Source: Chrysomallon squamiferum (Eukaryota > Animalia > Mollusca). From it: a stretch of 64,000 bases of DNA. This document shows, piece after piece, positions 9,443 to 64,000 of this stretch (position 1 is its first letter; each line of letters begins with the position of its first letter). The stretch lies in assembly GCA_012295275.1 (NCBI GenBank), contig CM022672.1, positions 32,922,001-32,986,000 of the forward strand. The letters run 5' to 3'. The notes under the pieces are model-generated. The model saw only the letters and a list, made by a program, of their open reading frames with translations. It was not told where the DNA came from and did no database searches. The translations under genes and the position numbers were made by a program.

Positions 9443-9473
<31 letters not shown>

Positions 9474-11991: not shown

Positions 11992-12031
<40 letters not shown>

Positions 12032-18709: not shown

Positions 18710-18778
<69 letters not shown>

Positions 18779-19224: not shown

Positions 19225-19283
<59 letters not shown>

Positions 19284-19607: not shown

Positions 19608-19640
<33 letters not shown>

Positions 19641-19969: not shown

Positions 19970-20020
<51 letters not shown>

Positions 20021-20340
20021 AGGCAAACTTGGCTAGCTCAAGTGTTGCTGTATCAAGAATCTCAATCTGTACAGTTTAGTAAAAAATAACCTTCGAATAA
20101 TCAAAACACTGATATGTTGAAAAAATATTCTTTTTTTCATTCTAAAAAAAATATTTTTAATTTAATTTTAATAATTTATTTGTTGTTAATTTATAATAAT
20201 AATTTTAATTTATGGTCTGTATTACTGTTGTAATTATTATCATCATGTTAATATTATAATTATGATTACTATTATTACCATTATATTATTATTATTATTA
20301 TCATCATTACAGTTATTATTAGTAATAGTGTTATTATTAT

Positions 20341-20378
<38 letters not shown>

Positions 20379-22689: not shown

Positions 22690-22723
<34 letters not shown>

Positions 22724-22819
22724 AATGAAAAAATAAAAAATCATTTATATTTCTAACAAAAATAATCATTATTTTCATTTATTTTTATTTTATTTATTTT
22801 TATTTTATTATTTTTATTA

Positions 22820-22860
<41 letters not shown>

Positions 22861-23945
22861 TTTTTTTTTTTTTATATTATTATTATTATTATTTTTTTTT
22901 TTTTTTGAATTCAGGAGAAAGCTTGTAGGAGAATAAACGGTGAAAAATCCAAACTGTTTGCATCAGCTCAGTGCACTGGTAATGAAAACGAGAAAGGAAA
23001 TTTAACACAAGAAATTTGTTTCCCCTCAGATCAAACTACAATTGATCAAGTGAAACAAGAAGTGAAACGAACCAAAGTCAAAACTGTATTTGTGGCTTCA
23101 GACAACACACATTTGATAGAAGAGTTTTCAGCAGAAATGCCTCAGGTAAGATGTGTACTGAGTCTAACAAAATGTTCCTTTATTGATGCTAACAAGCATC
23201 ACTGGTGTTTTGTGTAAACTCTTTCCTTGAACTAATGAGACATTCTGTTAATTACAAAGAGCTGCAAGAAGCTCTTCTCCTCAAAGCTTTCCATCTACCA
23301 TGTAGTATAACCTACTAGTTCTGTTGTATTGCCAAGAGCTATTTTTAATTAGTAAAATGAGCAGAATGTTATTGTAATAAATACATTTTATAAACTTCCA
23401 AGTAATTATTAAAATTATTTCTTTTGGTCCAGTTGTAAGAAAATATTTTATTTGCTTCTCATATTAATAATAAAGAAATACTTGTTTTTATTTTATTATA
23501 TCTTTTTAATATGCCTGACTTTAGCTTAATTGTTTATCTAATGAATATAATTTAACTGTTTCTTCTTTAATTTTTATTTATTGAAATTTATTTATTAAAA
23601 AAAAAAAAAGAAAGAAAGAGGATAAATAAAAATTAAGAAAGAAAAATTACAAAATTTTATTTCATATGATTTCAATATTGTTATTATTATATTTTTTTTT
23701 TCTTCTTATTGTTAATATTATGTTGTTTTTTTTTTTTTTGTTTTTTTTTAAAACAGGTCAAGTTTGTGAAGCAGTCAGGTGACCCAAGTCCACATCTTGA
23801 CCTGGCTGTACTGGGAAAAGCTGATTATTTTATAGGAAACTGTGTTTCAACTTTCACAGCATTCGTCAAACGAGAAAGAGATTCTAACAATCTGCCGTCG
23901 TCTTTCTGGGCTTTTAAACCAAAAGACAAACATGATGAACTCTGA
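18336..23945 (+). CDS. POFUT1: POFUT1 paralogue, copy B (about 370 aa, HDEL); apparent 1-nt frameshift in exon 4, so possibly a pseudogene or a homopolymer error
   Basis: Exons 18336-18435, 19027-19139, 19803-19920, 20398-20562, 21638-21833, 22915-23145 and 23757-23945 have the same intron phases as copy A. Motifs [38 protein letters not shown] and GNCVSTF...HDEL are present. The sum is 1112 nt, one base short of frame, with the break near the A6 run at 20423-20428. Confidence 0.85.
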
Positions 23946-27265: not shown

Positions 27266-29854
27266 TTATTGTTCAAAATCCACGGTCAGTGCCTGGACTA
27301 TCCATGGATCACTTTTAGATCCCTCCCTAAATTCTTCCTTGGTTAGTTTACCATCATGATTCTGAAAACAGAAGAAGAAAAAAAAGATATCTATGGTTAA
27401 AATATATATAAACAGATGTAGGGTCCATGTTTGTATGTCAGTGATGTTTTTTTATATTATAATACAGTGATGTTTTTTTTATTTCTTTATCTTATATGTA
27501 TTTTTGATACTTAACAATGCTATTATAACTTGATAAATGCAAAACAAAAATTTACCAAAAACTTATTTTAAAAATTCATGTTTTTTTCTTTAGAAAGCTT
27601 ATGTATAAAAGCTAAATTACATTAAAAATAATAATTAGTAATAAAATTACTAAATAAATAAATAAGTAAACAACAGTTTTGAAAATTTCTTTACTCCTAA
27701 TATTTTGCCATTTGCAGACATTTAACAGTTTTCATGATCACATATTTTGGATGCAGTTTTGTCAAGTAATAACTCAGACTTGTAGCTATATTAATGATCA
27801 GAAGAAATATTTTATACATTGAAACTGGATAATTAACAAGAGTAAATTAGAAAAAATAAAGAAAAGTTTACTATAAATCTACAAATTATCAAATGAGTGT
27901 AAACTTTTTTAATGCTAAAATAGGTTCATCAATGCTCGGCACAATTAAAAATTGTGCACTTTTTCCACAAAGCATATGTTCTTAGTAAAGAATATATAAA
28001 AAAATGATTTTAAAAATAAAATGGATAAGTTTAACAGATTTAAATATTAGATTCCAAAGTCTGAATATGTAAATAAAGATTACCTTATACTGATTTCTGT
28101 CACATTTTAACTGTGTATAAGTGATATATACAAAAACCAATTAAGACAGCTGCTAATAGATGTACAAATTCTTTGACCTATACAAAACATCATATAAGAC
28201 TGAGCTACAATTAATTACGCATTCTCATTCATAACTAAATAAATAATTGCGACACAATTGTTGCAGATTTAATGTTGACAATCGTCAATGAATAACTATT
28301 TTCCAGAAATCTTAAATCATCCATCTGAAAGAATAGTTTTTAAAAAAAGACTCATTCATTTATTAAGATCATTACAAAATTAATAATTAAGTATTTTATA
28401 GAAATTTACTATAAAAAAAACCTCTCACCAGGTCCATCTGAAGGAATATTTTGTTAACTCGTTTCTGGGGTGTGTCTTCATCCCTGGGTAGGTCCAGTAA
28501 CTCTCCCACCATGCTGTAGATAGCATCAACAATGTCCACCATCTCCTTTTTGGTGATGAAGCCATCATTGTCGAGGTCATACAAGCTGAATGCCCCTGGG
28601 GAAAAACAAAAGGTAAATTTTTAATTAAAATTAATAAAATAATTAGAATTCCTTATTCAGAACTGATGATTTATTTTTAAATTCATAATTAAATTGCAGA
28701 CAGAGTGGTGTAAATAAGTAATTAATTTCATGTGCGAGTATGTCTGTGTTTATATCCAAATAACTTTTTTAGTATTTGTTTTTAAAATGTAAATATTTTT
28801 GTGTAAATGTTTGTGTATATCCATAATTACATTAGTTACTAAATACTCTATCTTTGTTAAAAATAAAATATATTTGTATTATAACTAGTCATACTTTATT
28901 TAACTTTTCTTTTTATCTTATTATGATTGTTATTTAAATATAAAACTAAAAACTTAAAAAAGAACATTTTTTAAAAAACATCTATTCCGAAAAGATTGAC
29001 AATACTTAATTTTTACTTCCATTGATTTTAAATTAACAAATAATACAGGGATACATTTATTTTTACTATTATCATTTTTAAATAGTTTGATAATTTTTGG
29101 CATTTTATCACTTTTTCTAAAGCATACTTGTCATGGATACAACATCTTACATCAAGAACAGAGGTTTCAAATAAAGATGGATATATACATGGCTACACCA
29201 CATGCAAGCAATTACACATATTAACTCTTTTTTCTTTTTTTTAAATTATCTGATACAGATACCATAAATTAAAATAATAATAATTTCTAGATTAACAATT
29301 AAAAATATAAGAACAGGCTAGCATCAACAAAGGGTAGAAATTGGAGCAGCCTGAGATTAAAAGCGGAAGAACTGTGACATAATGAGATCAGAATGGGAAA
29401 AATATGTTCTGGAAAATTGAGAACCATTGCTTTAAATGAACATCACATATTTCATCAAGCAAAATCCATATCTCAGACATATAGTAAGTAATTACATCTA
29501 TCTGTCCACAATTACCAGTGACTGAACTAATGAACTCCCACGTCTGGGCTTACTGTTATCCTATAGTGTGGTTGACAGTTAATTGCTAAGCAGTGGGTGG
29601 TCTCCCTTGCCACCAGATGTGTCTTTCATTATAATTTTCCTTCAATTAATAAAGTAAAAGTAACGAAAATAAACCTAGTGAAAATATACAAAATATGTTT
29701 CAGCTGTTCAGTTAAAAACCACCAAAGCAACAGTTCATTAGTAAAAAATAATAATAATAATTAATTATATTCATATTCTAACCACTGTAAATGTTATTAT
29801 GTGGAGGTTCAGTAAAATGTATTTGGTCTGTTTATTCAAACAATGCATGTATTT

Positions 29855-29935
<81 letters not shown>

Positions 29936-30293
29936 AATATACATATTTATATTTATTTTATAAATCTCTACTTACAGTCCAGTTTCTCATCTAGTGTACC
30001 CCTTGATGTGACAGAAAGAGCACAAACAAACTCTTTGAATGTGATGTAGCCATCCTGTATAGAAAGAAAAACTTATGAAGAAATGTCCAACAGAAGAAAA
30101 TTTATAGAAGAAATTAACTAATTGTTTAATATTATGATATAACTGAAAATGATACATATTGTTTGCAATTTAATTCAATCACCTTCTCTTAAGATATTTT
30201 GTGAAATAAACAAGACAAAAACAAATAAATAAATAAATAATTCACTATTTTTATCATCATCATCATCATCACCATTACTGAAATTGTTTCTTA

Positions 30294-30371
<78 letters not shown>

Positions 30372-31300
30372 GTCTCTCAGTTCACTGTTGCTAGGAGACC
30401 AACAAGTAATTCAGATAATTTATTTACCTTATTTGCATCAAATACATTGAAGACTAATTCAGCAAATTTACTTGGGTTTCCATGAGGAAAAAACTGCTGA
30501 TAAATACTTTGAAATTCCTAAAAAATAAAATAAAAAAGATATAAAAGGAAAAAAAAAAGAAAAAAAATAGAAGAAGAAAAAGATGAAAAAGGTAATAATG
30601 GTTTTCATGACAGCAGCATGATTATATTCTGCTTCTGTCTTAAGCAGGTTTCACATAAAATGACTTATCTTACCAACTCTTAATCTAATTAAGAAAAGTG
30701 AATAGAGTCTTTTGTAGTGTGTCAGTGATTATAACCCGTAAAACTTTTAATTGTGAATCTATCCATACTTTAATTAAAAGAATGAGATACAAAGAATGAA
30801 ATTCACATATTTTACACAAAGTTATGAATGAATGATTATTTATTCTCTTTACTTGCTTTGTTGGGCATTTGTTGTTACCAAAATAAGATATCATCTAGTT
30901 TATACTTGAAAAATCCCTATCTAAGTATATTATCTGAAAATTATTCTTATTTTTCAAATTATCACATTTTATACACTTCATATTTACTACTAGTGAATTC
31001 CTGAAAAAAATAAACTGTACTCTATCAAGGTTATTGTAAGTTGTACAGTGTGAAATTTGCTTTAGGAAGAGATACTCAAAATGAGTCATGAAAATAATTT
31101 AAAGAAAATTGAATTAAAAAAAAAAAATTAAAAAGTGTCTCATCAAATGGTGAATTAAGCATTAAGCTCAATTTATGTTCAAATTTAATGGATTATATTG
31201 ATTAATCCAAAATTTCTTATGTTATGTGGATTTTGTTTTGATTTATGTTTGACATGTACTTAGGCATAAATCAGTCTTTGATAGACATACCATAATAATG

Positions 31301-34511: not shown

Positions 34512-37500
34512 TTTATTAACTTTTTGGGGGTGGGGAGGGAGGGGAGTGGGATATAAGATCAGCCTCTTTGTTTCTGTTCTTGACTTAAATTCACCTCATC
34601 TTTCTCGAGTAAGATATAAGTTAAGAAATAAAATATATAATAAGCTAGTTTGTTTTCAGTTGTTGATATTACACTTCACTATGTAACATAGTTAAAAGCA
34701 TGCCTTTCATCTACAGATAAAAATAATTATCTATAATTATAATTAGCTGACTCTCAAAAGAAAATATATTTCAAAAATCAATAAAACCAAAATTGTTTAA
34801 AAATCAGACTGGAAAATGTACAGGGACTGGTACTATAAAGATGAAAACATAGAGAGAGTATTACAACATTTTCATATTCTATAGTCAGTGGATTGATTAA
34901 AAACAGACAGGTAGATGGATTGATAATCACAGAATTTGACAAAAGAATGCAAACAATAATACATCTTTTTTTATTTATTAATAATATTACTTATTTTTTC
35001 AATTATTATTAGTAATAGTGGTATTTGCATAAAATATCAATGAAATCTTTCACATCTTAATATAAATGAATTCACTACCTTAAATGTTTGTTTCTTGTTA
35101 ATTTTTGTTTTAAGATAAGATACATAATATTATTTTACTGTATAAATATATCACTGTTTTAATATAGCATTATTTGTTTATAATAACTATATCACTGTTT
35201 TAAGATAGATACATAATATTATTTTACTGTATAAATATATCACTGTTTTAAGATAGATCATAAAATTATTTTCCTATATAAATACACCACTGTTTTAAGA
35301 TAGGATACATAAAATTATTTTACTATATAAATATATCACAGTAATAAAAAAAAAAAATTAAGACTCCATATAACTGTAGCATACTAATAAGCACACCAAT
35401 TTTATTTGTTTTTAAAATTCATACAAGTTAAGTAAATTCAACAACATATATTTATATCCAAAAAGTGTACGTTTTTATATTTTTTATCATTATTACAAGA
35501 AGCAAAATAATTTTCTGAACAATGAAAAAAACATGAAAATAAGGTTTATAAAGTTTGTAAATAAATAATAAAATAAGAACAATAAACAAGAAAGAAAATA
35601 AACAGGATACTGAGGGGGTATATGTGCAAAAAATCTTATATTTGTTTAATTTTTTTGTATCTGTTATATTCTAAATGTTCTCACTATTACATAAAAACAA
35701 CTACAAACAAATATATAATAAAGATTACTGAAGAAAGCAGGCCAAACTGCTTAGAAGTAATAAAATTGAATACTTTTGGCAAAATTTGAAAAAGTTTCTT
35801 TTTATTTTTCTTTCCTTTTTTTTTGTTTTGAATTTTTTTTTTGGTGATATTTATATATATATTCTGTTTCACTTTATTTTCTTCACAGAATGTTTTTATA
35901 AAGAAATTATTAAATCAGCATTAAGTTTAGTTTAAACAAGAATTAACAATAAAAGAATTTTGTAACTTAAACCATAAAGAGTTCTACAGACAACTTCTTT
36001 CATGTACAGATTTTAAATAAATAAATAAATAAATAAATATAAATAAATAAATAAACAAATAAATAAGCATATGCAAAAATATGGTTAAAACTAAGTAATA
36101 TAGAAAATAAATGATAAAAAAAAGTACTTATAAATAATTATACAAATACTGATTGGAAAAAAAATTAATTTAATAAACTAAAAACAAATAAATAAATAAT
36201 GCAGAAAACCAGTCATGTAAAATAAAATATTTACATAGCATTTTGTATGTACGTAAAGAAATAAAAACAAAATTAAAATAAATACCACTAAAAATATTAT
36301 CAAAAACAGAAAAATAAACAAATATTTATGGAGAATAAATTAATAAAAAAATGAAAATATTATATCAAAATTTTATACATAGTTAAGGGAAATAAAATTA
36401 AAACATAAAAAAATACCTCAGAAAAAATAACTAAATAATAGGGAAAACAAGTAATGAAAAAGAAAACTAATAATATTTGTTAACTATGTCATGGACTGAA
36501 TAACACTATGTGCTAACATAGCAAACAGAAATGTATCAGATGCTTATATAAACACAATGGATACATAATGTACTGTTTACAACATCTTACAAAATACCTT
36601 TACAGTGAACAACTATGATTTATACATTTTTACAAATCTGTCATAAACCCAGCAGTTCATCTAAAAGTTGCTATAAACAGAAATTTCCATTGAAATATGT
36701 TTTCTTTATATTAAAAACTTGAATTTTTCTTCTACACAACATACTTTCAGTTGTTTTTAAGAAATAAGCCACGCTTGTTAAAAATCATTTTTTTTAAGAC
36801 TATTAGTATATTCAGATATCAACATAACAAACTTTCAGTTACTTTTCAAGAAATATTTCAAAAGTTAGTTATAAATCTTGCTTTGCCTTAAGCTCTGCTC
36901 TTAAATTTAGAGTATTTTCATGAAATAATACTATATGGTTTAAAAACCCAACAAATTATCAAACTGTATTTATAACTTTAAATTCAGATAAATAACCAGT
37001 CACTTTCCAGCAATATAAACGAAAAATAATTATAAATTTCTCTTCCAACAACATTTTTTTTTTTTTTTTAAACAGTATTTATAAATCTTATAATCAACAA
37101 TGTTAACATTAACTATTTACAAACCATGTTGCTAAATGTACTAGGTTTTCCCTTCACTTTGCTTATCAGGTTTCACTTAATACGAAATGTAAATCACAGC
37201 CTCGATGAAAAAAAAGAAAACAATCATAACTCAGGTCTTTTGTGAAAACTTATCCCTTCTCGGAGATGTGTCCACCCAGGTGTTGGGGTCGGGGCCAAAC
37301 TTGGCCGTGTATGCGGCGGTCATCCTGGTCAAGCGGGCCACTATGGCTTTCATTTCCTGCTGCGAAACCGACTGCAGCCCCAAGTAGCGGCGCTCAAGAC
37401 CTGGAACTTCAGGCATCGTTTTCCTCGGTCGCGGCGTGATGTACACAAAGTCCTTGTCGAGAAGATCGATTCCCCCTCTGCTCGCCACAGTTGGCCGAAC

Positions 37501-38472
37501 AAGCCTGGAGACAATGGAGTCGAGCTCTTTCGAATTCACCGTGCGCCCGCGAACAACTTGCGACTGAGACGACTTCACCACTCTCGGGCGCAGAAACTGT
37601 CGGTCGCCTTTGGTGGAATTCAAGTACTTGCTGGCGCTGGTTGCAGAGCGGGTGTGGTCGGTTTGCTGTTCTTCGTTAGAGTTTTCACTCATATTCAGCC
37701 TCCCAGTGCTGTCTGTTCGTCCCTCCGTTGTCACTGACTGGCCTGATCTCGGTCGCAGCAGAAGTAATTTTTCCGTGTGTCCAGCGCCGATGATGTTGTC
37801 ACTTTGAGAACATTTGCGACAGAGTTGTTTCGACGGGTGAAGAGCTAAGCGTTCGGACAACTCCAACTGTTCACTGCCACTGACAGAATGCCAAGGACCG
37901 AAACGACGTGAGGGTTTATATTTTTTAATCCTGTACTCACCGAGGTTGTGCGAGGTCGCGTTGTAGCTAATATCCGCCATGTAGTCCTCAATACAGCAGC
38001 CAATTCAGTCAATGAAACTATGATCCAGCGTGGCGTAACAAAACATATTATACGCATTACCTTGCTTGGTCAGCTAACAAGACCAAATTGTTACATCAAC
38101 TGAAGCCATATGAACCAGTGTGGCTAAAAAACATGATATGTCACAGTCCACTGCACAAATGTGCCTTCACTGAGTGTGTCATATCTTCACAATGGCTAAT
38201 CAGTCTCAGCTAATCTCTGTAACTCAAACCATAATCTACCCACTTCAAATGACCCACCATTATCCGCACATTAGCCTTTATGAGTTTTCTAAGTGGTAAA
38301 TTTCTTTAACAAGCTTAAATAAGGTGTTAAGAATTACCAGAGCTGATTACTTCTATGTGAAGGTCTTTAATGACTGGCAGAGGTTGGGGTTAGGCGAGGT
38401 TGTTGTCAGAGGTTTGTGTGTTGTGTGTGTGCACGTGTGTGTGTATGTGTTTGTCTGTGTCGTGTGTGTCTG

Positions 38473-48144: not shown

Positions 48145-48244
48145 ATAATAATAATAATAATAACAACAACAACCATTCTAGGAGGGTTCTTTCTATTCAT
48201 TAATCATTGTTTAGGCCCTAACTCAAGACATCATCGACGACGGA

Positions 48245-49142
48245 ATGGACTCAGAGGAAAATCCACAGCTACGACGATCACCTCATATGGAAACTATTGT
48301 GGAAGTCGAAGTCAAAAGAAAACGAGAGGACGGTATCATCAGTGAAGCTCCTGAGAAAAAGTCTAAAACCAGTCAGAAAGCTAATCACCTGATTGACATC
48401 ATTAATGAGTTACTGGCAGAAAATGGTGCCAAAAATAGAGATGATTTATTAACATGGATTCGTAAGAATAAACTTATGTCTGATCAGATTGTAGGAAAGA
48501 AAGCTCCAGGTAAGCCCTTAAGGGTTTTTTACTTATGTTATGGGTAAATTTTCTTTTGAGAGGATTCTTAAGCAACAGTTAGAACTGTTTGAAAAAGTCC
48601 TTGACCCTGACCAAACCATTCTAGATTATTTGGAAAAATGGTTACCAGGTGAAAAAGATTAAAAAAAAAAAAGAAAAAAAAAAGAGGTAATAATATTGCC
48701 GAACCTGAAGAGAACATGATCAATTTTGTTTATTGGTGCATCATTGCTCAACTCGATGGACTCAAACTGACTGCTAAAGTTATTAGCATCTTGAAAAAGC
48801 TGGACAATGAAATATCTTGTATCTGAGGAAACCACCATCGGTCAAGCTGGACAATTGCATGCTTTTCTACAAGGTGCAACATGTCCAAATCCAAAGATGT
48901 GGGTTTGCTTTGCAAAATGGTTTGAGAACAAGGATATTGATCTAGCTGATTATTGCAAGTATGGATGGGATGCTGAGATTGATGGTGTATTTGATCATCC
49001 AGGATTTGAGGATAATCTCATGTCAATCTCATTCAAATTGCGTAAAGATAACTGTTACTTCAAATCACATCCGCTCCTTTCATTGTTTCCGCTAATTTTT
49101 CAACACCATGGCGTTGTTATAAAAAGGCTGCCAATTTGGTAA
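48245..49142 (+). pseudogene. Fragmented ORFs of a decayed virus-like element, possibly a parvovirus/densovirus NS1-type SF3 helicase relic
   Basis: Consecutive protein-like frames broken by stops, frameshifts and an A-run: ...KANHLIDIINELLAENGAKNRDDLLTWIRKN..., FERILKQQLELFEKVLDPDQTILDYLEKWLPG, INFVYWCIIAQLDGLKLTAKVISILKKLDN, YLVSEETTIGQ (possible eroded Walker A), ...CKYGWD...FDHPGFEDNLMSISFK. The family call is resemblance only. Confidence 0.35.
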
Positions 49143-52484: not shown

Positions 52485-53498
52485 ATGTAATGAGGTCAGA
52501 TGTACTTTTTCTAGGCGTTCTTGTTTTTCTTTCTTGCTCTCTTTTTTATTTTACTGGGTTTATTAAGAGAATAAAGAACATGTGGTCCAGATTTATCTGA
52601 TATAATTTCAATTTTCTAATTTTTTACATTTATAAATATTTCAGATTTCTTCAAACGAACGTAGCTGACAAAATGTAATTATACTGCCATGTTTTAGCAT
52701 GACAAGGTGAAAAATTAAACCTCATTTTAAGACTACACTGATACTCAACTAATTTTGCTGTTATTATGAATTACTACATGCACCAATTCACTATGGTGAC
52801 CCTACAAATATACCAGCGCTTGTCAAGTAGTCCTAAACAAACAACAAAAAAATCCCTTTATTTTTATCGTTCTACTTACTAGTATGAACTATAAAAAAAT
52901 AAAAATAAAAATAAAAAAGGATAAATGTATAAAAATAGTTTGAAAATGTAAATCGACATTATTTCCGTAATGTTCACTTTTTAAAAAACTGATACGTAAA
53001 AATATATTATTTAATTCGTGAAACGGATAAAAAAAAAAAAAAAATAATAATAATAATAATAATAAAATTAAATTAAATAAAATTTAAAAAAAAAAAATTT
53101 CCGTTCTGGTCGGCAGATGGCGGGATACTGGACGATGGGGATATTTTTATTACAATAAATGTGAATGGCAGTTTACCGGTGATAGGGGTATAATCAGAAA
53201 TGTGTTTCAACAAATACTGTATCATGTAAGTAACGATGAAAACTCGTAAAAACTCTCAAACATTATTTACGATATATAAATAAATGAAAATTACAATTCT
53301 ATATATTTTGGTTGTTTTTTGTTTGTTTTTATAGTTTTTTTTCTTTCCGAATGTTCAACAAATTGTTCAACAGTATATCTCATAACGCCGTATGTTTTGT
53401 TTTGTTTTTTGTTAAATTATTTATTTCGTTATTTTCAGAGACAGCAGTTGCGAAAAACTAACATGTAAAATTAGCCTTATTATTATCTTAATTTATAC

Positions 53499-53530
<32 letters not shown>

Positions 53531-55262
53531 CCACCACATTTCAGACTGGTTTCCCTTACAGACTCAAATTAAAAAAATAATAATAATAATAATAAACGTT
53601 TGTGCCCTAGGTCTACACCTACAGCAATCTCTGAACCCAATTAATAAATAAATAACAAGTTTGCTAAAGAAAAACATTTTTAGAAAAACGTATAAAAATA
53701 ATTGATGTCTCAATGTGTAATTTTTTTGCTTTCAACCGATATAATTATAGCATGGTTCCAGTGTAGTCTACTGAGACAAAGAAAGAAAATTGTCAGTGCG
53801 AAGCAACAGATTAAGAAACCGAGAAATAAAATACTTTAATATCATATTTATGAAAAATTTAATTTTTAAATCCTGAAATTTACAAAGGTCATGAGCGATT
53901 TAAAAAAAAAAAAAAAAAATATGGGAACGTTTTTAGATATCTATACTTCACAGGGTTATTTCCCTTGAACAGAAATGCAATACAGTGACTAGAAAATATT
54001 TTATTACTTTATTATTCTTTCAAATAGAAACAACGTTGCCATGACAATATTTTTAATAATATATAAAACATGTTAACCTAGGTATTTCCATAAATAGGTT
54101 TTACATTAACATACCAGTTTCAGTATTTTATAATAATTAATGTCTGACATTCTATATGCATGTCACACAATCTTCAAAATTTAAATCAAAATATCCATTA
54201 TAATGTAAATTTTTAAACAGCGTTCTTAACCATTTGGTAATCTGAAGTTGTTTTCACCTATAATAACGCCATTTAATCTTGTTAAAACTGAACAATCACT
54301 ATTAGCATGAAAACAAAATACAAAATAAAAATTTGAGTACATTTTTATTCATTTCATCAATTCAGTATCTGGTTTCCTTAACCACCCTAATCAATCAGTT
54401 TTCATTTGGCTGTAGTGAACAAAGAATTTACTCTACATTTAGCTCAAATAATTTAAATGGTTAAAAAGAATAAAGAAGATTACAAGAGTTTTGTAAGATG
54501 TTTTATAAATTACGCAGAATGTTGTACATTTGTCACTTACACATACATCTTGACTAACTTTTGTAGCCAATATTTCTTGCCACAAAGAACTCACTGAAAA
54601 GTAATCTGTTTATTATGAAGTTCACATCCATTTTGTTGATAACGGGAGATTTCAAAATTTCACTCATTGCAAGTAAAGACAAAATTTTAAAATTACATCA
54701 TCTTTCACAGAAATGAACGATTTTGTTCTCCCTTTTCCTGCAGTCAGTGAACAAGTCTTCATGATAGTTTTTAACCATCCAGAATTAGGATCAATCCAAA
54801 AACAACATTTTTTTTTTTAAAGATAATTTAAATATGAAATTTAAATTAAAAATAAAATAAAATTTTTTTTATTTCCAATGTCAATTACAAGAAGAGAAAA
54901 AAAAGCATTCCCCAATTTGTTTTGTATATTTACATGTTATTACTTTTGTTATAATTAAACCTGCTGATATTTCAACTATGCCTCAAAGTGATCTGCAATC
55001 ACTCTGCAAAAAACCCAAGAAACAGACTAACATGACAATGCCAATAATGCCAGGCAGTTCCATATCTAAATGATTTATCATGTAGTAGTTTATACATGGC
55101 AATATCAAATTACAGATAAAATATAAATTTAAATTGTACAAATTAGACATTTCACAACAATTCCTTATGGTTAATAATTAAACATTTTCATTTTTCCTTC
55201 ATTATCCCAATTTAAGAAATAAATTTCTTTAGAATATAAATTTAAATTTATTAATTAATGCG

Positions 55263-55325
55263 TTGCTTTCAGAGTTAAAAAATAATACCAAGTTTGTTTA
55301 TTCCCATCTGGTAATCTTGATTAGA
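55263..55325 (-). pseudogene. Degenerate SNORD74-like copy
   Basis: Shares the CGTTGCTTTCAGA flank and D box with the 56173 copy, but box C and the guide are eroded. Confidence 0.55.
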
Positions 55326-55827
55326 GATTTGTAATTTAATTGTTTAAATTTACATTGCTATCAAGGAAATGGTTGAATTTGGTTTTCATTTCAAGTCAGT
55401 AAAGGTTAACTCCCTTCAACATATTACTGGTTCTATGTAGAATTCATTTCCAAATTAAAACAGATGACATTTCTCATATAAAAGTTTAAAAAAAATAATA
55501 TAACATTTCACCACAAACAAATTGCAGAATTTCACAAAAATCATGAAACATATGCCAAATTTTATGAACTTTTAAAAAAACAAATCAATTAGCTCTTTTC
55601 AGTGAACGTTTTAGCTTGATCAAAAACATTCCAATGTGTACAATATTCAATTCTTTAAAGTAGCTTATAGACATACATACATACATACATATTAAATTAA
55701 CACTTTCTTCTCTTATAAACAACATGATTAAAAAACCAACAAAAAAATCCCATTTAAAACCATAAATATTGTTCCTTTCCAACCCCTCCCACCAAATGCA
55801 AATTAAATTAAGCCAGGTCATCTTGAC

Positions 55828-55903
55828 AACAGATCAGATATGGAACGGATAAATTTGATATCACTAAAAATCATTTGGCAGAATCATGATCATCATTTCT
55901 GTT
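55828..55903 (-). ncRNA. SNORD47: C/D snoRNA SNORD47 (U47)-like, copy 2
   Basis: Minus strand: aacagaa ATGATGA tcatGATTCTGCCAA ATGA ... TCCGTTCCAT at CTGA tctgtt. Both elements match human U47 (GAUUCUGCCAAAUGA, CCGUUCCAU) and are antisense to 28S GGAACGG...TTGGCAGAATC. Confidence 0.88.
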
Positions 55904-56172
55904 ATCCTTCAACAACCACTGGCATTCTTTCAAGTACCAATATTTTCACATTTCAAAATCAGTATTTTAATATTTTAAAAGTTAAAATGCTGCACACAAA
56001 CAATTGACCAATATCATTGATGTGTTATTACTTACCATTATTAATAAGCAATCATAGAATAACGTCAGTACAGAAGGAGCTGTCGTAAACAAATCAGACA
56101 ATCACCTACCTGATAAAATACTAGGTATTCCATTTTTGTTTTAATTAAGTATTAGAAACTGAGAATGTTACG

Positions 56173-56237
56173 TTGCTTTCAGATTAGATAAATAATCAGA
56201 AGATCATCTGTCCCTATCTTGTAATCATCATCAGCAA
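56173..56237 (-). ncRNA. SNORD74: C/D snoRNA SNORD74 (U74)-like, copy c
   Basis: ttgctg ATGATGA ttaca AGATAGGGACAG ATGA ... CTGA aagcaa. The guide is antisense to 28S CTGTCCCTATCT, as for human U74 (GGUAGGGACA before box D'). Confidence 0.85.
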
Positions 56238-56498
56238 TGTGAGCATTTCAAATCTGAAATTTTTCGTTTTAATGACAAGCGATTCTGAAGAAACTTTCAA
56301 AAAGGTTTCAGATGGTAACTCTTGTCAGAACTTCATTATGATTAAAATTTATTTATGTAATAATAAAAAAAGAAGACATTCTGGAAATGGCAATTTGAAA
56401 ATGTGTAACATTTAAAATCCCTACAGCACTCACAAGACCCAACAAAAAATTTAAAACTTTACAAATCTTTGCAAATAATGACATTTATATTTTAAAGC

Positions 56499-56564
56499 TT
56501 TGCCTTCAGATCAGATAAATAATCACAGAATTCATTTGTCCCTATCTTTATCATCATCGACAAA
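56499..56564 (-). ncRNA. SNORD74: C/D snoRNA SNORD74-like, copy b
   Basis: tttgtcg ATGATGA taa AGATAGGGACA a ATGA ... CTGA aggcaaa. Confidence 0.82.
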
Positions 56565-56866
56565 AACTACAATTTTTACACATTTTGTAACTAAGAAAAT
56601 GTTAAAAAACTAAATCATTTTCAAGAACACAGCAACTTAAAAAAAATCATTCAAAAAGATTTTACAGATGATAATCTTTTGTTCAGAGCTTCACTATCAT
56701 TAAAACTGCTTCATAAAAAAAATATTAAAAAAAAATTAAAATAAAAATTCTGGAAATGGCAATTTTATATGTCTAGTATTTAAAATCCATAAACCACCAA
56801 CATGTGTAAATCTTATCAAGATTTTGCAAATAATGAGACATTTTGTATTATAAAGATGTGTGGTGA

Positions 56867-56935
56867 TTTGCCATCAGATCAGATAAATAATCACAGAATT
56901 CATTTGTCCCTATCTTTATCATCATCATTGGCAAA
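56867..56935 (-). ncRNA. SNORD74: C/D snoRNA SNORD74-like, copy a
   Basis: tttgcca ATGATGA tgataa AGATAGGGACA a ATGA ... CTGA tggcaaa, with a perfect 7-bp terminal stem. Confidence 0.87.
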
Positions 56936-57279
56936 AACCACAATTTTTAAACATTTTGTAACATTAAGAAATTATTAATCAGCAAATAATGATTTTTAAA
57001 TTCTTAAATCCAGTAATATACAGTTTACCAGACCACAACTAATTATCAAGCTGGTTACCCATTTACTGGCATGTTCAATTATAAATATTATAAATTTTGT
57101 GATAATTTGACATACATACATACATACACATACACATATATACATACACACACACCAACAGATATTTAGTAATATGCATCCTTTTCTCACCAGCTTCCTC
57201 ACATACAAGTTTAAAAAAGTTTTCAATTTAAAAATGAATTTAAGGGAATTTATAAATATTTTTCTGATTATTAAAAACA

Positions 57280-57363
57280 GACAATGGATCAGAAATGGAA
57301 CGGAAACTGTTGATATCACTGAACTTTCATTTGGCAGAATCAATGTTCATCATATCCATTGTC
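57280..57363 (-). ncRNA. SNORD47: C/D snoRNA SNORD47 (U47)-like, copy 1
   Basis: gacaatggat ATGATGA acatt GATTCTGCCAA ATGA ... TCCGTTCCAT tt CTGA tccattgtc, with a long terminal stem. Confidence 0.9.
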
Positions 57364-57905
57364 ATCAATCAGAAAAATACCCCCCCCTCGTCATTAAGAT
57401 ACATACCTTATATTTGTATTAACTGGATGAAAAGGGCAAAATCTGTATTGACGAGTGAAAAATTGGTTTTAATATAAAGATACAAACCATATTAACCAAA
57501 ATTTTAATAAAGACCCCAAAATATTACCATTTGTAGATACATACTGATTTCAGTCTGCTTGGAAAGCAATTGTAGATTTTGTTAGTCTGAAATCAAACGA
57601 ATTAAAAGAATACATTTTTGGATTAATTTTAACTAACTCAGAACAAATTGTAAAAAAAAAAAAAAAAAAGTAAAAATAAAAGAAATAAAAGCAAAATTTA
57701 GAAAGTTTATCTAACCAAAACGAGGTATGCTGCAGTAAAAGATTATTTAAATGGATTATTTAAAAAAAAAAAAAAAAAAAAAAAATATTTACACTTGTAA
57801 ATTCTACTTTCAATGATTAAGCATCATAAAGGGACACAACTGAAGTTTTTTTGCAAGATATGAAAAGATAACCTGTATATTTATCACTGAAATAATTATA
57901 GTTCA

Positions 57906-57980
57906 CAGTAATCCTCAGGTACTAAATTATCAACAAAGAACTTCAGTGAGAGAGTTCAATTATTTCATCATTGGATACTG
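57906..57980 (-). ncRNA. SNORD81: C/D snoRNA SNORD81 (U81)-like
   Basis: cagtatcca ATGATGA aataa TTGAACTCTCTCA CTGA ... CTGA ggattactg. Guide plus D' matches human U81 UUGAACUCUCUCACUGA and is antisense to 28S GAGAGAGTTCAA. Confidence 0.9.
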
Positions 57981-58320
57981 CACGCTTAAAAAATCACTAT
58001 TCACATTCAAGAAATTATTAAAATATCAGATGGTTATATTGCATTTAATAAATCACATATACAACAAAAAATACAAGCGAACATCACATACCTAGCAACT
58101 CAACCCAAACTTCAAGATTTAAATGTTCAAATCTGAAATGAAAATAAACAGTTAAAAGTCAAATATATCATAAATGAATTGTTTGTTTTAAAATTAACAT
58201 TTGTGCATTTTCACTGTGGACAACCTCTGATTTTATTACTTTTCCTCCCCTTTTTAAAAACCAATGTGAAGGGAGATAAACAATTAAATCAAAAATATTT
58301 TACTTTCATCAAGTTTTCCT

Positions 58321-58372
58321 TGAGTCAGATTCTCATCAACAATCTACAGCTGAACTATGGAATCATCACTCA
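58321..58372 (-). ncRNA. Short single-guide SNORD80/SNORD77-like C/D snoRNA (D-box guide deleted)
   Basis: tga GTGATGA ttc CATAGTTCAG ctgt agattg TTGATGA gaat CTGA ctca. It lacks the TTCGCCCCTAT guide found in neighbouring copies. Confidence 0.6.
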
Positions 58373-58837
58373 CCGTAAAAACATGAGGAAAGATTGTAAA
58401 ATAAAATTCAGATAATATTTTCTAATCATTTTCTAATTCAATAACTATAAAACAAACAGTATTAAAGTGAGCATGCAAACAAATACTGAAAAATCTAAAT
58501 TAATTTTTCGTAACTGAATTAGTAATATTGAAATTTCATATTAACACTTTTTAATTTTATTTATAACAAGTGGGTTTAAACCAGTGATTATAATTTTGAA
58601 CAGCAACACACAACTCAAAATATTCTATTAAAATATATAATAGAATTTATCTTCTATATATAATCAAGAGGCTCCAAACAACAAAGCAAATTATTTAAAA
58701 ATGTAATACTGCATATCACCATTCATACCATTATTGTGTTTATAGTAGTGGAATTTCAGAAGTTGAACCAAATTTTTCTTCAGCGGGGAAATTATCTTAA
58801 ACATGTTATAAAAACTGCTAAACATTAAAAATGAAAA

Positions 58838-58916
58838 TTTGCTGGTGTCAGATAGGAGCGAAAAAATGTTCATCATCTTTGTACAGTTGAACTATGTAAT
58901 CATCATTCACAGCAAA
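58838..58916 (-). ncRNA. SNORD80: C/D snoRNA SNORD80 (U80)-like, copy d
   Basis: gctgtga ATGATGA tt ACATAGTTCA actgt acaaag ATGATGA acattt TTTCGCTCCTAT CTGA caccagc. Both guides match human U80 (ACAUAGUUCA and UUUCGCUCCUAUCUGA). Confidence 0.9.
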
Positions 58917-59543
58917 AATTCTGAATTGTATACAGATACGAAACAGTAGAATATGTCTTAAATAATTACCCATTATTGTGATATGGTATAGCTTACATCT
59001 AGCCTCAGAGAATCTGTATTCAATATACCACAGCTGTATAATTAAAAAAAAACAAAATCATTCACAGCAATACAAGATCAAAGTGTTTAAAAAAGAAAAT
59101 ATTAATTGTGTAAAACTGCTAACTATAAAACCAGCAAACAAATATTTAAAAATTAAAAATTATTTTTCTTTTGTTTAAGTAACTGAATTACTAATATCTC
59201 ATAAACTATTAACATTGTTCATCCTATTTCCAACAAGTTTTTAAAAAATCTTCTACAGCAACACACAACTCAAAATATTTTAACATACACAGAATAAAAT
59301 GTATCTACTATATAGACAAGGGGCTCCACCTGTAACAGGGAACACAAAAATAAAGAACTGCTTTATACCCATATATCATTAAACTAAATATAAAACAAAG
59401 TATTTAAAAATGTAGCACTGCACATCACCATTCATAACAGGATTATGTTTACAGTGGTGGAATTTCAGAAGTGGCACCAAATTTTTCTTCAGTGGAAAAG
59501 TAACAAACATGTTATAAAAACTGTTAAACATTAAAAATGAAAA

Positions 59544-59623
59544 TTTGCTGCTGTCAGATAGGGGCGAAAAAAATTTTCATCAACTTTGTACAGTTGAACT
59601 ATGTAATCATCATTCACAGCAAA
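59544..59623 (-). ncRNA. SNORD80: C/D snoRNA SNORD80-like, copy c
   Basis: Same layout with guide TTTCGCCCCTAT CTGA (antisense to 28S ATAGGGGCGAAA) and ACATAGTTCA. Confidence 0.88.
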
Positions 59624-60007
59624 AATTCTGAATTTTATACAGATATGTAACAGTAGAAAATGTCTTAAATAGTTACCCATTATTGCGATATGGTACAGCT
59701 TCCACCTGGCTTTGAAGAAACTATTCAAAATACCACACCTGTATAATAAAAAAATAAATTTATTAACAGCAAAACAAGATGAAAGTGTTTAAAAAAGAAA
59801 ATATTGTGTAAAACTGTTAACTATAAAACCAGCAGTATTAAAGTGAGCATGCAAACAAATATTTAAAAATAAGTTTTGTTTTGTTCCAGTGACTGAATTA
59901 CTAATATTTCATATGCTATTAACATTTTTCAGCCTATTTCTAGCAAGTTCTTAAACCAGTGAAAAATAACCATGGCATTAAAATTGGTTAAACATTAAAA
60001 ACGAAAA

Positions 60008-60080
60008 TTTGCTGCTGGTGTCAGATAGGGGCGAAAAAAATGTTCATCAACTTTGTACAGTTGATCTATGTAATCATCAG
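60008..60080 (-). ncRNA. SNORD80-like copy b, probably degenerate
   Basis: D guide is intact, but the 5' stem arm is lost, box C reads CTGATGA, and the D' guide is mutated (CATAGATCAA). Confidence 0.55.
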
Positions 60081-60247
60081 TAACTGTATTCAAAATACCA
60101 TACCCATTATTGTGATATTAAAAAACTTTTAAAAAAATTTTTAAAATTTAAAAATAAAACAAAAATGGAGAATATGCTTTTAACATGTATCTTGTGATTT
60201 CTGCATTTGTCTGTCTATTAAGTTAAAAAATCAGTAGTTTTAAATTG

Positions 60248-60324
60248 TTTGCTAGTGTCAGATAGGGGCGAAGATTTTCATCAACAACATACAGCTGAAC
60301 TATGGAATCATCATTCACAGCAAA
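60248..60324 (-). ncRNA. SNORD80: C/D snoRNA SNORD80-like, copy a
   Basis: gctgtga ATGATGA ttc CATAGTTCAG ctgt ... TTGATGA aaatc TTCGCCCCTAT CTGA cactagc. Confidence 0.88.
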
Positions 60325-60759
60325 ATAGAGAACTACATGTTTAAAATGTTTCATTTCACGCCCTTTTTCTTCTGTATATAATATAATACGATATATGATA
60401 TGATACAATACAAGCCAATATAATGTAAGGCATTATAACAAAACAAATCTATTTTTGTATACTAATCATGAACAACAATCTTACAAAAATTACATATCAG
60501 TTACATGCAATGAGTTTCCTACACAATTTAGCTGAACTGAAATCTTTCATAGCAATAAAAAAAAACAAAAAAATAAAGGAAACCTTAACATTTGCATTTT
60601 TATCAAATAAGGTTAGAAGTTTTTAATAAAGATTGAAAAAATTCATGTATTATTAACAACACAATTCACTGTAAACTACAGTGGATCATATTGTGATTTT
60701 TTAAACGATTACTTTCAAAATAGCATTTAAAATTTAACAACTTTACATTTCTCTTTCAG

Positions 60760-60830
60760 CTTGCCTCAGTTAAACATTCTCATCATTCAGTAGTCAAGAG
60801 TAGCAAATATAATTTGACATCACTGGCAAG
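60760..60830 (-). ncRNA. SNORD76: C/D snoRNA SNORD76 (U76)-like
   Basis: cttgcca GTGATGT caaatta TATTTGCTACTC TTGA ctactga ATGATGA gaatgtttaa CTGA ggcaag. Matches human U76 UAUUUGCUACUCUUGA and its 3' UAACUGAGGC. Confidence 0.88.
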
Positions 60831-61292
60831 AATCTGACACACAGCCTTTTGTGAGAGTTGCTCTTATTTAATATACATTGTAACTCCATCTTATAATTGT
60901 TAATCTGTTACTTTAGCTTAATTGCAAACATTTGTTCCGAAATTATCTACAATTAGAAATTTAAAAATGACTTTTCTTTGAATTTAAACCCACCAGTTAT
61001 ATTACCTACAGAAATAACCATAGAAAAGTTTAAAAAAAAGAAAAAAAAAAGTGTTTATAATCAAAATAAGAATAAAATATCTAAAATGCTGTACATTTTC
61101 TAAACCTTTTTCAGGCATCTTTAAACAAAAGAAATTTACATACTAAAAATATTGTATTATATTCATTTCAACAGAAAACGTCCTATATTCAAGCCTACCA
61201 TTTTATCCTTATAAATTTATTTAAAATAACAACTTGAAATTAATATGGCTGTATCCCCCAATTTTGAGCTAGCAATTTATTTACCCTTGAGA

Positions 61293-61361
61293 CAGTATCA
61301 GAACAGATAGTGCTATCTACATTAATTTCAGAGAGATTCCCATGTTTGTCATCACATACTG
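61293..61361 (-). ncRNA. SNORD79: C/D snoRNA SNORD79 (U79)-like
   Basis: cagtat GTGATGA caaac ATGGGAATCTCT CTGA ... CTGA tactg. Guide plus D' matches human U79 AUGGGAAUCUCUCUGA and is antisense to 28S GAGATTCCCA. Confidence 0.9.
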
Positions 61362-61728
61362 CCTCAACTAAAAGAAATGTTACGATAGTAAAACATTTTT
61401 ATTTATACTGGACTCTTCACTGTAGAGTTGTATAGTAGATTGAAAAAACTACACCAAAAAAAAAAAAAAATATATTAATAAAATTCTTTAAAAACTATTC
61501 ACCAAAAAATGTATTTATTACTGGATCTTTTTCACAGTAGAGTAGTATAGTAAGGGGAAAAAAAAAAAAAGAAATATCAATAAAATTTTCACCAATTATT
61601 TCTGTACAGGTAGACACATTTTCTGAACTGATCCGTCAGGCTTTCTGAAAAATAATTAGAAAATGCAATCATTAAAGTGTTTTGAATTTGTTTTCATTGC
61701 AAAGTAATTTATATCATATCTGTAATAA

Positions 61729-61803
61729 ACCCAGATCAGTATACGAATACAGAATTGATCATTCACGACTCATGGGTAAAACAAATGTTCATCATTTCTG
61801 GGT
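61729..61803 (-). ncRNA. C/D snoRNA with SNORD41-related guide shifted by 2 nt
   Basis: acccagaa ATGATGA acatttgttttaccc ATGA ... TCTGTATTCGTA ta CTGA tctgggt. 7-bp terminal stem; the guide is antisense to 28S TACGAATACAGA. Confidence 0.82.
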
Positions 61804-62780
61804 CACACTTTTCATCTGTCCCAATCGGCAAACATGTTAAACGCTGGACTCAAAACACAAGTCTGACATGTTTGGTAGCCCAAACAAAAATATTCATTTT
61901 TCACCTTTCTTAGTGAAGGAAAAGGTGTAGGCTGACAAGATTGCATTTAAAAAAATGTAACAATTTCATATAACTTATCAGTAGGCACCAAATTAACTAG
62001 CCAATCAAATAATTTTAAAGAGGAAAAAACTCTGCAAATGTATTTTAAACCATTTTTTATAAATGACAGGGAAATGTACTGATTTAAACTGTCATCTTTA
62101 TTAAGTTAAAAAATATGACTTGGGATTGGCACAAAGAGCTGATTTTGACTAATTGCCCCAGTCTAGTAAACTTGTACATGGGCTTTTTTTTTTTTTTTAA
62201 AATGACTTTTTAAAAATATACAACCTGCAAGTTGAAAATACTGGAGGATTCTGTCCAACGATCAAATGACTACACTTTATCACTGTTATTACCATTCAAA
62301 TTATATTTATTTGTAAATCACTGGGGTAAAACTAGTTTTATAAACACAAAGGACTGAATCAATTTATGGCAAGGAAACAAATGTTTTAAATGACCCTGCC
62401 AACTATTCCAGTTTCAACCAGACATAACAGGCTTTCTTTGTTCCTCTGAGCCACAGCTTGTTTATATATGTAATCAAATTAAATTGAAGTGGATATCATA
62501 AATGACTGTACACAATTATATACAATAAAGATTTTAATTAAAAAAGCAAAGTAGGTCTAAAACTTGAAACAGGCTGCAGGAATCATGAACAAAAGTAAGA
62601 ATATTTATTTTTTAATTACTTTTGTCACTTACAGCATGAATGTGCTAGAAAAACTATCAATGATTTACGTATTCATGACACTGGCTTGCTGAACTTTTCA
62701 TATTTAAAAAATGTTACTTTGTACATGTCTAAGAGAAAAGTGACCTCTTCTGACTGTTCTAGCCTAGTGCAATCCTTTTG

Positions 62781-62858
62781 ACTTAGATCAGACAGTACGA
62801 ATACAACATTGTAGTCAATCAGTATTCTTGGATGTTTTTTTGATCATCATATCCAAGT
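62781..62858 (-). ncRNA. SNORD41: C/D snoRNA SNORD41 (U41)-like
   Basis: acttggat ATGATGA tcaaaaaaac ATCCAAGAAT a CTGA ... GTATTCGTACTG t CTGA tctaagt. The D guide matches human U41 GUAUUCGUACUG. Confidence 0.85.
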
Positions 62859-63263
62859 CATTAACAATTAATTAATTTCATGTCTCTGCTATTAATGCTA
62901 AACTGGGAAGGGAACTAATCAAAATGATTCAGATTTAAAGATATTTAAAAGACTACTTCATCATTTTCAAGCTTTATTCCATTTGTTAACTACTTAAAGC
63001 TGTGCGAACAATAAATTCATTAGACTTTCATTAATGATCTTAAATTTAAAATATTAGGTATGGAGAAATTGGTTTTGTTTCTTCTTTTAATTTAAATTAA
63101 AACAATACTATATATATATATATATATTAAATTTCTATAAAATCAGATATTGACTGGTAGTTGAAAGGAACAGTACTTTACTCAACAGTTTATAAAAATT
63201 CCTACAAAGGTATGGTGTAACTATAACTATTTAATAGCATAGCCTATACATTCCTTTTGTTGC

Positions 63264-63390
63264 AAATGTAACTTTCAGGATTTGTATGGTCACGACAAAA
63301 CCAGAATTGGGGACACTTGGCATTAATATACCTTCTGATTATATTGCTTAGGTTATATAGACGCCTAAACAAATAAAAAGTCAAAAGGTT
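63264..63390 (-). ncRNA. Candidate H/ACA snoRNA
   Basis: Minus strand: 9-bp lower stem ACCTTTTGA/TCAGAAGGT, upper stem TTGTTTAGG/CCTAAGCAA, H-box ATATTA (ANANNA) about 14 nt after the upper stem, a second weaker hairpin, then ACA-TTT. Confidence 0.5.
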
Positions 63391-63810
63391 AATGTAAATG
63401 AACTAGTGTTACTACGTATTCCTGTATTACAACAGATTCAAATGTATTTTTCAAACAGGAAATCTTTTGAAATGTTAAAATTCTTCTGCCTACTGCAGTT
63501 TTGCTTGCAGTTAGCTTTGAAAATAACACGTGGTCAGTGAAACAAAGTATTAACTAACATTTTATCTTAACTTTTTAAAAATTATACAAACAAACGAGAA
63601 GTAACACATTTATTATTCAGTTTATCTCCCCGGAAAAGTTTAAATTAAATTTAAAAAATCTTATACTGATGTAACCTAAGCAAAAAAACCCAACAAAAAT
63701 GAAAAAATATGAAAACATAATACTCTGAATCTGTAGTACATGTTACATTAATGTTAGTACTGTGTAATAGTTCAGATTGCAACGGATAATTTTGACTCGC
63801 CAAACCTCAC

Positions 63811-63900
63811 ACTGCTTTCTCGCCCTGTTTATCTCAGAAATAAACCGGAAGCCAATTTCGAGTCACGTGACTTGTTTTGCCGGTGCGTTTTTCACGTTAA
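63811..63900 (-). promoter_or_regulatory. Promoter and first exon of the snoRNA host gene
   Basis: CpG patch with ETS CCGGAAG (63845-63851), palindromic E-box AGTCACGTGACT (63861-63872), pyrimidine-rich minus-strand start (CTTCCGGTTTATTTCT) and donor CAGT|GTGAGG at 63810. Confidence 0.55.
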
Positions 63901-64000
63901 TTAGAAAGATTAATAAATTAAAAATAAAAATAATATTGAAAACCTATCAACAGTTTACAAGTCATCTGACCTACTGATAATAAATACGAACCATCGTTCT

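Follow-up and report, generated by a model that had tools for sequence, protein, structure and literature searches.

In human, the host gene GAS5 carries the small nucleolar RNAs (snoRNAs) U74, U75, U76, U77, U44, U78, U79, U80, U47 and U81, in that order (PMC2653536, PMC4408788, PMC6984369), and in human and mouse it lies between DARS2 and ZBTB37 (PMC6789762). The Xenopus gene reads U74, U76, U79, U80, U44, U78, U47, U75, U79, U80, U80, U47, U81, with U47 and U79 present twice, U80 three times and an order unlike the human one (PMC6984369). Reordering and duplication are thus normal for GAS5. Descriptions of the gene extend to chicken, frog and zebrafish, and its conservation has been put as 'at least across the gnathostomes' (PMC4408788); for U76 of Trichoplax, host homology outside vertebrates was called 'virtually impossible to determine' (PMC2655684). 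Our literature search, which did not cover subscription papers, returned no GAS5 homologue outside vertebrates. Here we describe a minus-strand locus of about 9.5 kb in a 64,000-nucleotide (nt) stretch of the Chrysomallon squamiferum genome (GCA_012295275.1, CM022672.1:32,922,001-32,986,000, forward strand; hereafter the window), which has a G+C content of about 27% and contains spliced animal genes. The locus holds a cluster of box C/D snoRNA genes and is probably a spliced non-coding host derived from the same ancestor as GAS5. If the two are orthologous, GAS5 would be far older than the jawed vertebrates to which it has been traced.

The cluster comprises 15 box C/D units between 55834 and 62850, all on the minus strand, flanked upstream by an H/ACA-shaped RNA and downstream by a decayed copy of U74. 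A preliminary description, made from the letters alone, had listed 15 such units, and all of them lie at the places, in the order and on the strand that it gave. It had also proposed a check with Rfam covariance models, which returned 6 matches at the gathering score in the whole 64 kb, all of the box C/D type and all in the unit, on its minus strand, at 55830-61363. These are SNORD47 (55.6 bits, 55834-55896), SNORD79 (50.8 bits, 61298-61355), snR60/Z15 (44.5 bits, 58848-58906; 44.3 bits, 59554-59613), ceN111 (44.2 bits, 60258-60314) and SNORD24 (43.0 bits, 60766-60823). Below the gathering score came a second SNORD47 (43.7 bits, E 7e-6, 57289-57353), three matches to Me28S-Cm2645 (36.2 bits, 56874-56928; 33.9 bits, 56506-56557; 25.5 bits, 56179-56231), two to SNORD41 (34.2 bits, 61736-61795; 32.8 bits, 62788-62850), two further ones to snR60/Z15 (35.3 bits, again at 60258-60314; 31.9 bits, 60021-60080) and one to SNORD26 (28.4 bits, 57915-57971). 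At E<=10, Rfam recovered 14 of the 15 units, the 45-nt unit at 58325-58369 having no match. Rfam found no further snoRNA at 53600-55820.

Two scans independent of Rfam gave the same picture. A strict scan for a C box, a D box and a terminal stem of at least 5 bp found 13 units in the locus, none on its opposite strand and 1 in the other 54 kb (both strands), against a mean of 0.415 and a maximum of 3 in 200 Markov resamples. The second scan looked for 10-nt complements to eukaryotic 28S ribosomal RNA (rRNA) beside a D or D' box; its references were 28S fragments of other eukaryotes (contaminant contigs) instead of Chrysomallon's own, and all pairing reported here covers 28S only. It returned 14 minus-strand matches, all at 55874-62795, and 1 plus-strand match elsewhere. 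Boxes, a terminal stem and an rRNA complement of 10-21 nt by box D or D' come together in 13 of the 15 units. The terminal stems that had been described for all units are therefore present in these 13; the unit at 60021-60080 is stemless (duplex -0.8 kcal/mol) and that at 58325-58369 has a weak stem (-3.5 kcal/mol), and both are doubtful as guides.

Family identity was approached by three independent routes, namely Rfam, target register and spacing, and published human sequences. Together they confirm the presence of U47, U74, U76, U79, U80 and U81, that is six of the nine GAS5 families, and of U41. The earlier claim that six GAS5 families are recognisable is thus borne out by Rfam scores, guide registers, target spacing and identities to human sequences. 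U47 and U79 match under their own Rfam names, U79 with a 10-bp D' guide and an 11-bp stem. For U74, the fly family Me28S-Cm2645 is paired with SNORD74 (PMC11014333 Table S4); copy 2 (56506-56557) is 98% identical to copy 1 (56874-56928) over 60 nt, and copy 3 (56179-56231) has a 12-bp guide. The human sites are A3809 for U79, C3820 for U74, C3866 for U47, A2350 for U76 and C2352 for U24 (PMC6984369). By 28S pairing, with the U79 site set to 0, the target of U74 copy 1 lies at +11 and that of U47 copy 1 (57289-57353) at +57, both on the 3' side, which reproduces the human spacing of 3809, 3820 and 3866. For U80, the literature gives the mammalian snoRNA as the equivalent of snR60 (PMC1821038). 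The double-guide unit at 60258-60314 has an 11-bp D guide, and the two U80 sites are 91 nt apart in the 28S fragment L008, as compared with 1521 and 1612 in human; the D' guide rests on the Rfam consensus because L008 differs at the D' site.

For two units the best Rfam label was overruled on the strength of the guide register and of 16- and 17-nt identities to human sequences. The unit at 60766-60823 scored best as SNORD24, but it lacks the U24 D guide and its fifth base pairs with an A two bases 5' of the U24 cytidine; a stretch of 16 nt matches a human SNORD76 primer exactly (PMC5390076), and the unit is assigned to U76. The unit at 57915-57971 scored best as SNORD26, in which reading it has a 2-nt gap before box D' relative to the consensus and the register is wrong. 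It carries 17 nt (guide plus D' box) identical to human SNORD81 (PMC10743478; PMC3349704 supplement), forms an 11-bp duplex with 28S and shares the U81 guide with nematode ceN114.

U41 (62788-62850, box C to D) is in the consensus register, with a 14-bp D guide on 28S and a U as target. Its paralogue at 61736-61795 has a 2-nt gap before box D, and its guide is shifted by 2 nt, two bases closer to box D, giving a target offset of +407 as against +405 for U41. It is predicted to methylate a C two bases 3' of the U41 site. The stretch at 62823-62840 (minus strand), which precedes the U41 D' box, has no 28S complement of at least 8 bp.

The preliminary description had found no convincing U44, U75 or U78, and Rfam, guide and 28S scans gave the same result. 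A search with the U44 guide string returned 3 matches at 3 mismatches against 2.26 expected, none of them in the unit, and neither U75 nor U78 was detected by Rfam or by the 28S-complement scan. The human guides for neighbouring sites that are hosted outside GAS5, U53 (C3848), U30 (A3804) and SNORD17 (U3797) (PMC6984369), were also not detected at the locus by Rfam or the 28S scan.

Several families have been copied within the locus. Four U80 copies are present, as had been claimed, of which that at 60021-60080 has no terminal stem and an altered D' guide and is likely decaying; a deletion upstream of its box C removed the 5' stem arm. The copies at 59554-59613 and 58848-58906 lie in a 707-nt tandem duplication that carried acceptor, exon-like block and snoRNA together. 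The unit at 58325-58369 had been labelled U77-like. By alignment it is a truncated U80 copy that retains the D' guide only, and we drop the earlier label; in other individuals, three listed differences fall in or beside its stem. An origin of mammalian U77 from U80 has been proposed (PMC2653536). The truncated copy parallels U77 in keeping the D' guide only and is not its orthologue. Three U74 copies were found where three had been described, and a decayed fourth at 55261-55331, which has lost box C, has a changed guide and shows 70% identity with copy 3 across 71 nt, had been missed.

Both U47 copies keep the two conserved elements, and their flanks have diverged. The stem of copy 2 (55834-55896) spans 9 bp, and the 9-bp stems of the two copies are set apart by three compensatory changes, two of them double and one single; with two sequences only, no statistics were applied to this compensation. 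The retained guides and compensated stem amid diverging flanks are counted as support for selection on the U47 copies. Of 34 substitutions among the 40 of 82 rows listed, 1 lies inside a snoRNA against 14.8% expected (P 0.03), a difference that we treat as weak. The count leaves out 6 rows that came from run X5 alone, and another two substitutions lie 1 nt outside the boundary of the truncated U80. We somewhat favour a joint reading in which U47 methylation would be bilaterian and guide invention is ongoing, with one U41 copy shifted to a new cytidine and, separately from mammals, one U80 copy pared down to a single guide like U77.

We then weighed the relation to GAS5. Six of the 7 box C/D families here fall within the nine-family human GAS5 set (U77 counted with U80). 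Under a null in which families are placed independently, with the pool assumed to hold 50-120 families, this overlap has P 3.5e-5 to 1.6e-7, and 0.014 to 6e-5 after correction for 400 comparisons. Common descent with GAS5 is preferred because a 6-of-7 overlap is unlikely to arise by chance. The targets of the six families are spread over 28S, the U76, U80 and U81 sites being far from the U79-U47 block, and the locus, human and Xenopus have a partial order in common, the first U76 and U79 standing before U80, and U80 before U47 and U81. The changed order and the added U41 noted earlier were confirmed; from 5' to 3' the series is H/ACA RNA, U41, U41 paralogue, U79, U76, the U80 copies, U81, U47, the U74 copies and U47.

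The closest rival is that the locus is a non-coding snoRNA host but not an orthologue of GAS5, mobile snoRNAs having gathered independently in a growth-regulated host so that the overlap reflects convergence or chance. The location of snoRNAs is unstable across eukaryotes, and they change hosts over long times (PMC3511168). Fly homologues sit in different hosts, that of U74 in Uhg3 and that of U79 in Uhg7 (PMC4430873, PMC11014333), and that of U80 in mfl/Nop60B (PMC1821038). Since fly splits these three families over three hosts, function does not force co-hosting, and convergence through function is weakened; for the same reason, the linkage is unconfirmed in the sole protostome with published host data. 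Fly U76, the name of which refers to band 54E, is hosted by Uhg1, and Uhg1 has cargo in common with human SNHG1. A functional pull could act on part of the set, as the targets of U79, U74 and U47 fall within 57 nt and coordinated modification of neighbouring sites has been proposed to hold clusters together (PMC6984369). Against independent gathering stand the overlap itself, the distance of the U76, U80 and U81 targets from that block and the partial order that the locus has in common with human and Xenopus, and we regard it as unlikely.

Several observations nevertheless weigh against common descent with GAS5. If only five families are counted, the corrected P rises to 0.43 to 0.005. The order differs, U74 standing near the 3' end instead of first; U44, U75 and U78 are missing, U41 and the H/ACA RNA are added, and the six-family linkage is known from one invertebrate locus. 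Flanking synteny was not seen either, as no DARS2- or ZBTB37-type domain was found among the 87 of 469 frames of at least 35 amino acids examined at 24.5-64 kb, which covers the downstream flank only. Searches in other sequence collections added no second locus. The U47 pattern had 1 match in metagenome contigs, which was a bacterial coding sequence and matched nothing in Rfam; in viral contigs the U80 pattern had 0 matches and the U47 pattern 15, none of the 15 with a second U47 element; and snR60/Z15 was found in 0 of 5 assemblies with eukaryotic rDNA contigs, a search run with no positive control. The orthology put forward in the preliminary description is thus supported in part: common descent best explains the 6-of-7 overlap, and the evidence for orthology is the cargo, the vertebrate flanking genes not having been recognised on the one flank within the window and the single spliced transcript being a conjectured one.

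The host itself lacks a long reading frame, as had been reported. Without splicing, ATG frames on its minus strand reach 78 codons at most, and no Pfam family exceeded its cut-off in the scanned frames. The CpG, ETS and E-box elements described at the head of the unit are present, and a promoter role for them is plausible. The observed/expected CpG ratio is 1.25 at 63501-64000 and 0-0.53 across the body. A palindromic E-box 10-mer of the Myc/USF type in this CpG-rich stretch (63862-63871), a predicted promoter element, is unique in the window, in which its 6-mer core occurs 9 times. It is followed 13 nt below the core by a C and four pyrimidines, a candidate 5' terminal oligopyrimidine start, and an ETS site lies at 63845-63851. 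In fly Uhg1, a Myc-bound E-box lies 14 nt before the start, and Myc binds E-boxes at fly Uhg1, 2 and 5 and at most vertebrate SNHG promoters (PMC4430873). The candidate first exon (63811-63851) has the pyrimidine run overlapping the ETS site at its start, which is a guess, and ends at the best donor, 63810 (score 2.8). At the other end, the poly(A) signal proposed earlier, AATAAA at 54349-54344 with a U-rich tract behind it, lies in a candidate last exon (54325-54409) behind the best acceptor of the 3' interval (score 7.2). The 3' end is uncertain because four more AATAAA motifs occur between 54614 and 55302.

Exons were sought with approximate splice matrices, taking the best exon in each of 16 intervals and 100 resamples. 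The summed signal was 83.5 in sense and 16.6 in antisense, against a resample maximum of 78.7. The 5% level was reached in 6 of the 16 intervals, and for each of the best small-exon candidates, no more than 8 of 100 resamples of the interval concerned scored as high. The small exons predicted in this way lie at 61005-60994, 59738-59706, 59033-58997, 58132-58092, 57422-57407, 57263-57191 and 56109-56036. Of the tiny exons noted in the preliminary description, the overall sense signal holds up, exceeding all 100 resamples; individually they remain candidates, no splice joint having been seen. The 16-nt candidate 57422-57407 falls in the loop of a long hairpin at 57359-57470 (minus strand, z between about -2.7 and -3.0). 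This hairpin also shares sequence with the 5' stem arm of U47 copy 1 and might link use of the exon with folding of the snoRNA.

Public RNA runs were also compared. In four runs of one study, 21-26% of sampled words were present. Contigs from three of these runs, and from one run of another, undefined kind, were compared over 57800-64000 only, with no silent control stretch; the RNA-run contigs reached 24, 21 and 23 of 30 bins, i.e. over the 5' two thirds of the unit. Among the pieces listed, contigs covered 0.65, 0.54 and 0.53 of snoRNA bases and 0.42, 0.34 and 0.35 of bases elsewhere, a borderline difference that was equalled in 127, 59 and 91 of 2000 shifts. The contigs fit precursor RNA, with DNA origin possible, and show neither splicing nor ends. 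For a spliced host with the proposed start, the splice-site and RNA data are unfavourable in four respects: in 10 of the 16 intervals no exon candidate passes the 5% level, the RNA pieces listed are all unspliced at a depth of 2-7, 0 of 7 listed joints have canonical splice ends, and one contig extends to 63908, upstream of the start.

This last contig bears on a second rival, in which the cluster lies in introns of the untranslated region (UTR) of a protein-coding gene, with coding exons beyond the window edge; a relation of the cargo to GAS5 would still be possible, but the host would then not be a non-coding gene in its own right. From the proposed start to the window edge there are about 150 nt, and fly mfl/Nop60B offers a precedent: its four snR60 copies had initially been attributed to a non-coding host, dUhg6 (PMC1821038). 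We consider such a host improbable, as a CpG-rich E-box/ETS stretch heads the cluster over a CpG-depleted body and a poly(A) signal closes it, followed at 53001-53500 by another CpG-rich stretch (observed/expected ratio 2.06) that is likely the next gene's promoter. A mostly unspliced or sparsely spliced polycistron, with several snoRNAs per intron released by nucleases, would fit the lack of splice joints in the contigs and of above-background exon candidates between the first two U74 copies and in the 5' intervals, but it is more improbable still, given the sense splice signal above all 100 resamples, the 707-nt duplication that copied acceptor, exon-like block and snoRNA together, and the difficulty of seeing exons below the assembler's word length in contigs.

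The H/ACA-shaped RNA at 63255-63389 (minus strand) folds as two hairpins (z -3.35, with 0 of 200 shuffles as stable), with an H box 14 nt below the 5' pocket and an ACA 3 nt from the end. The order of hairpin, H box, hairpin and ACA is thus present, although the 3' hairpin alone is no stabler than shuffles (z -1.19). Its best Rfam match, SNORA72, was rejected, as its 22.9 bits (E 1.2) fall short of the gathering score, 43, and the 5' pocket differs from the consensus; no convincing target was found in the 28S fragments. A second H/ACA candidate at 62378-62520 (SNORA1, E 1) was discarded, as it folds no better than shuffles (z +1.0).

From these elements we infer tandem box C/D guide genes for 28S methylation, likely placed in introns of one spliced non-coding transcript that would come from the same bilaterian ancestor as vertebrate GAS5. 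Transcription by RNA polymerase II would begin near 63850, at the CpG-rich promoter with its E-box and ETS site, possibly under Myc control, and would reach a poly(A) site near 54330 after about 9.5 kb. Short exons would be spliced together, the product having no useful reading frame, and the released introns would be trimmed to snoRNAs of 55-75 nt and loaded into fibrillarin complexes. The predicted 28S marks are at the equivalents of human A391, A1521/G1612, A2350, A3809, C3820, C3866 and U4276, with perhaps an extra mark on the new C two bases from the U41 site. The inherited cargo would be U47, U74, U76, U79, U80 and U81, with local duplications and losses having altered order and copy number; U41 and the H/ACA RNA may have been gained here or lost from the vertebrate gene, and U44, U75 and U78 may lie elsewhere or be absent.

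Other features of the window lie outside the cluster. A POFUT1-like O-fucosyltransferase gene is present in two tandem plus-strand copies, 7854-13000 and 18351-23942 (Pfam O-FucT; exons by tblastn); its sole named relative, 1 match among 46 candidates, is from Gigantopelta aegis, with 68% identity over one exon. Exons of an EF-hand protein, which we take to be a neuronal calcium sensor, lie at 27269-30517 on the minus strand. A 257-codon open frame at 37231-38004 (minus strand) has no Pfam family and 15 relatives, with a Magallana gigas (oyster) protein in one cluster. Together with the POFUT1 relative this points to a mollusc, weakly in detail. Several protein-like frames in differing phases at 48215-49142 (plus strand) have no Pfam match and are perhaps a decayed mobile element; a homologue search with the frame 48795-49139 returned none. 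A tandem repeat array with a strong strand skew occupies 235-2321. Among the contigs examined for rDNA, contig L005 (1-4868) of a tubeworm-symbiont assembly has a 28S rRNA motif at its end, preceded by 4.8 kb with no rRNA match, and is possibly a host rDNA-inserting retroelement.

The type of gene described here is already well known in vertebrates and flies; what is new is its implied age. Long non-coding genes are rarely traceable beyond vertebrates, and if the proposed descent is true, GAS5 would be among the oldest identifiable non-coding genes. Its ancestral job would then be snoRNA delivery, the exon functions known in mammals being late additions, and the 'constrained drift' view, in which snoRNA location is not kept, would be limited. 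The guides add a second aspect. Among the model organisms compared in Table S4 of PMC11014333, the U47 and U81 sites are given for human and Xenopus only, methylation by U47 being so far listed for vertebrates only, and the U47, U81 and U41 sites are not listed there as methylated in fly.

Compared with known systems, the locus resembles the Drosophila hosts Uhg1-Uhg8 as an invertebrate non-coding multi-snoRNA host with a promoter E-box, Uhg1 having 16 snoRNAs (PMC4430873); unlike it, no fly host is shown with this set in the cited parts of PMC4430873 and PMC11014333. The cluster in the 3' UTR of Drosophila mfl/Nop60B (DmSnR60 a-d) likewise combines four tandem snR60/U80 copies with an H/ACA RNA in one transcription unit, but its host is protein-coding, and the other five GAS5 families are not reported there in the sections drawn upon (PMC1821038). 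The glucocorticoid-receptor decoy of primate GAS5 is recent (PMC6789762) and would not be expected in the mollusc locus. Vertebrate GAS5 differs from the locus described here in that the latter adds U41, the shifted U41 paralogue and the H/ACA RNA, has U74 tripled near the 3' end, and spans 9.5 kb as against about 4 kb. The two are alike in six of nine families with the same target registers and in having no long reading frame; U80 and U47 copies are expanded as in Xenopus, and one U80 copy is reduced to the A1521 guide, as has been proposed for mammalian U77.

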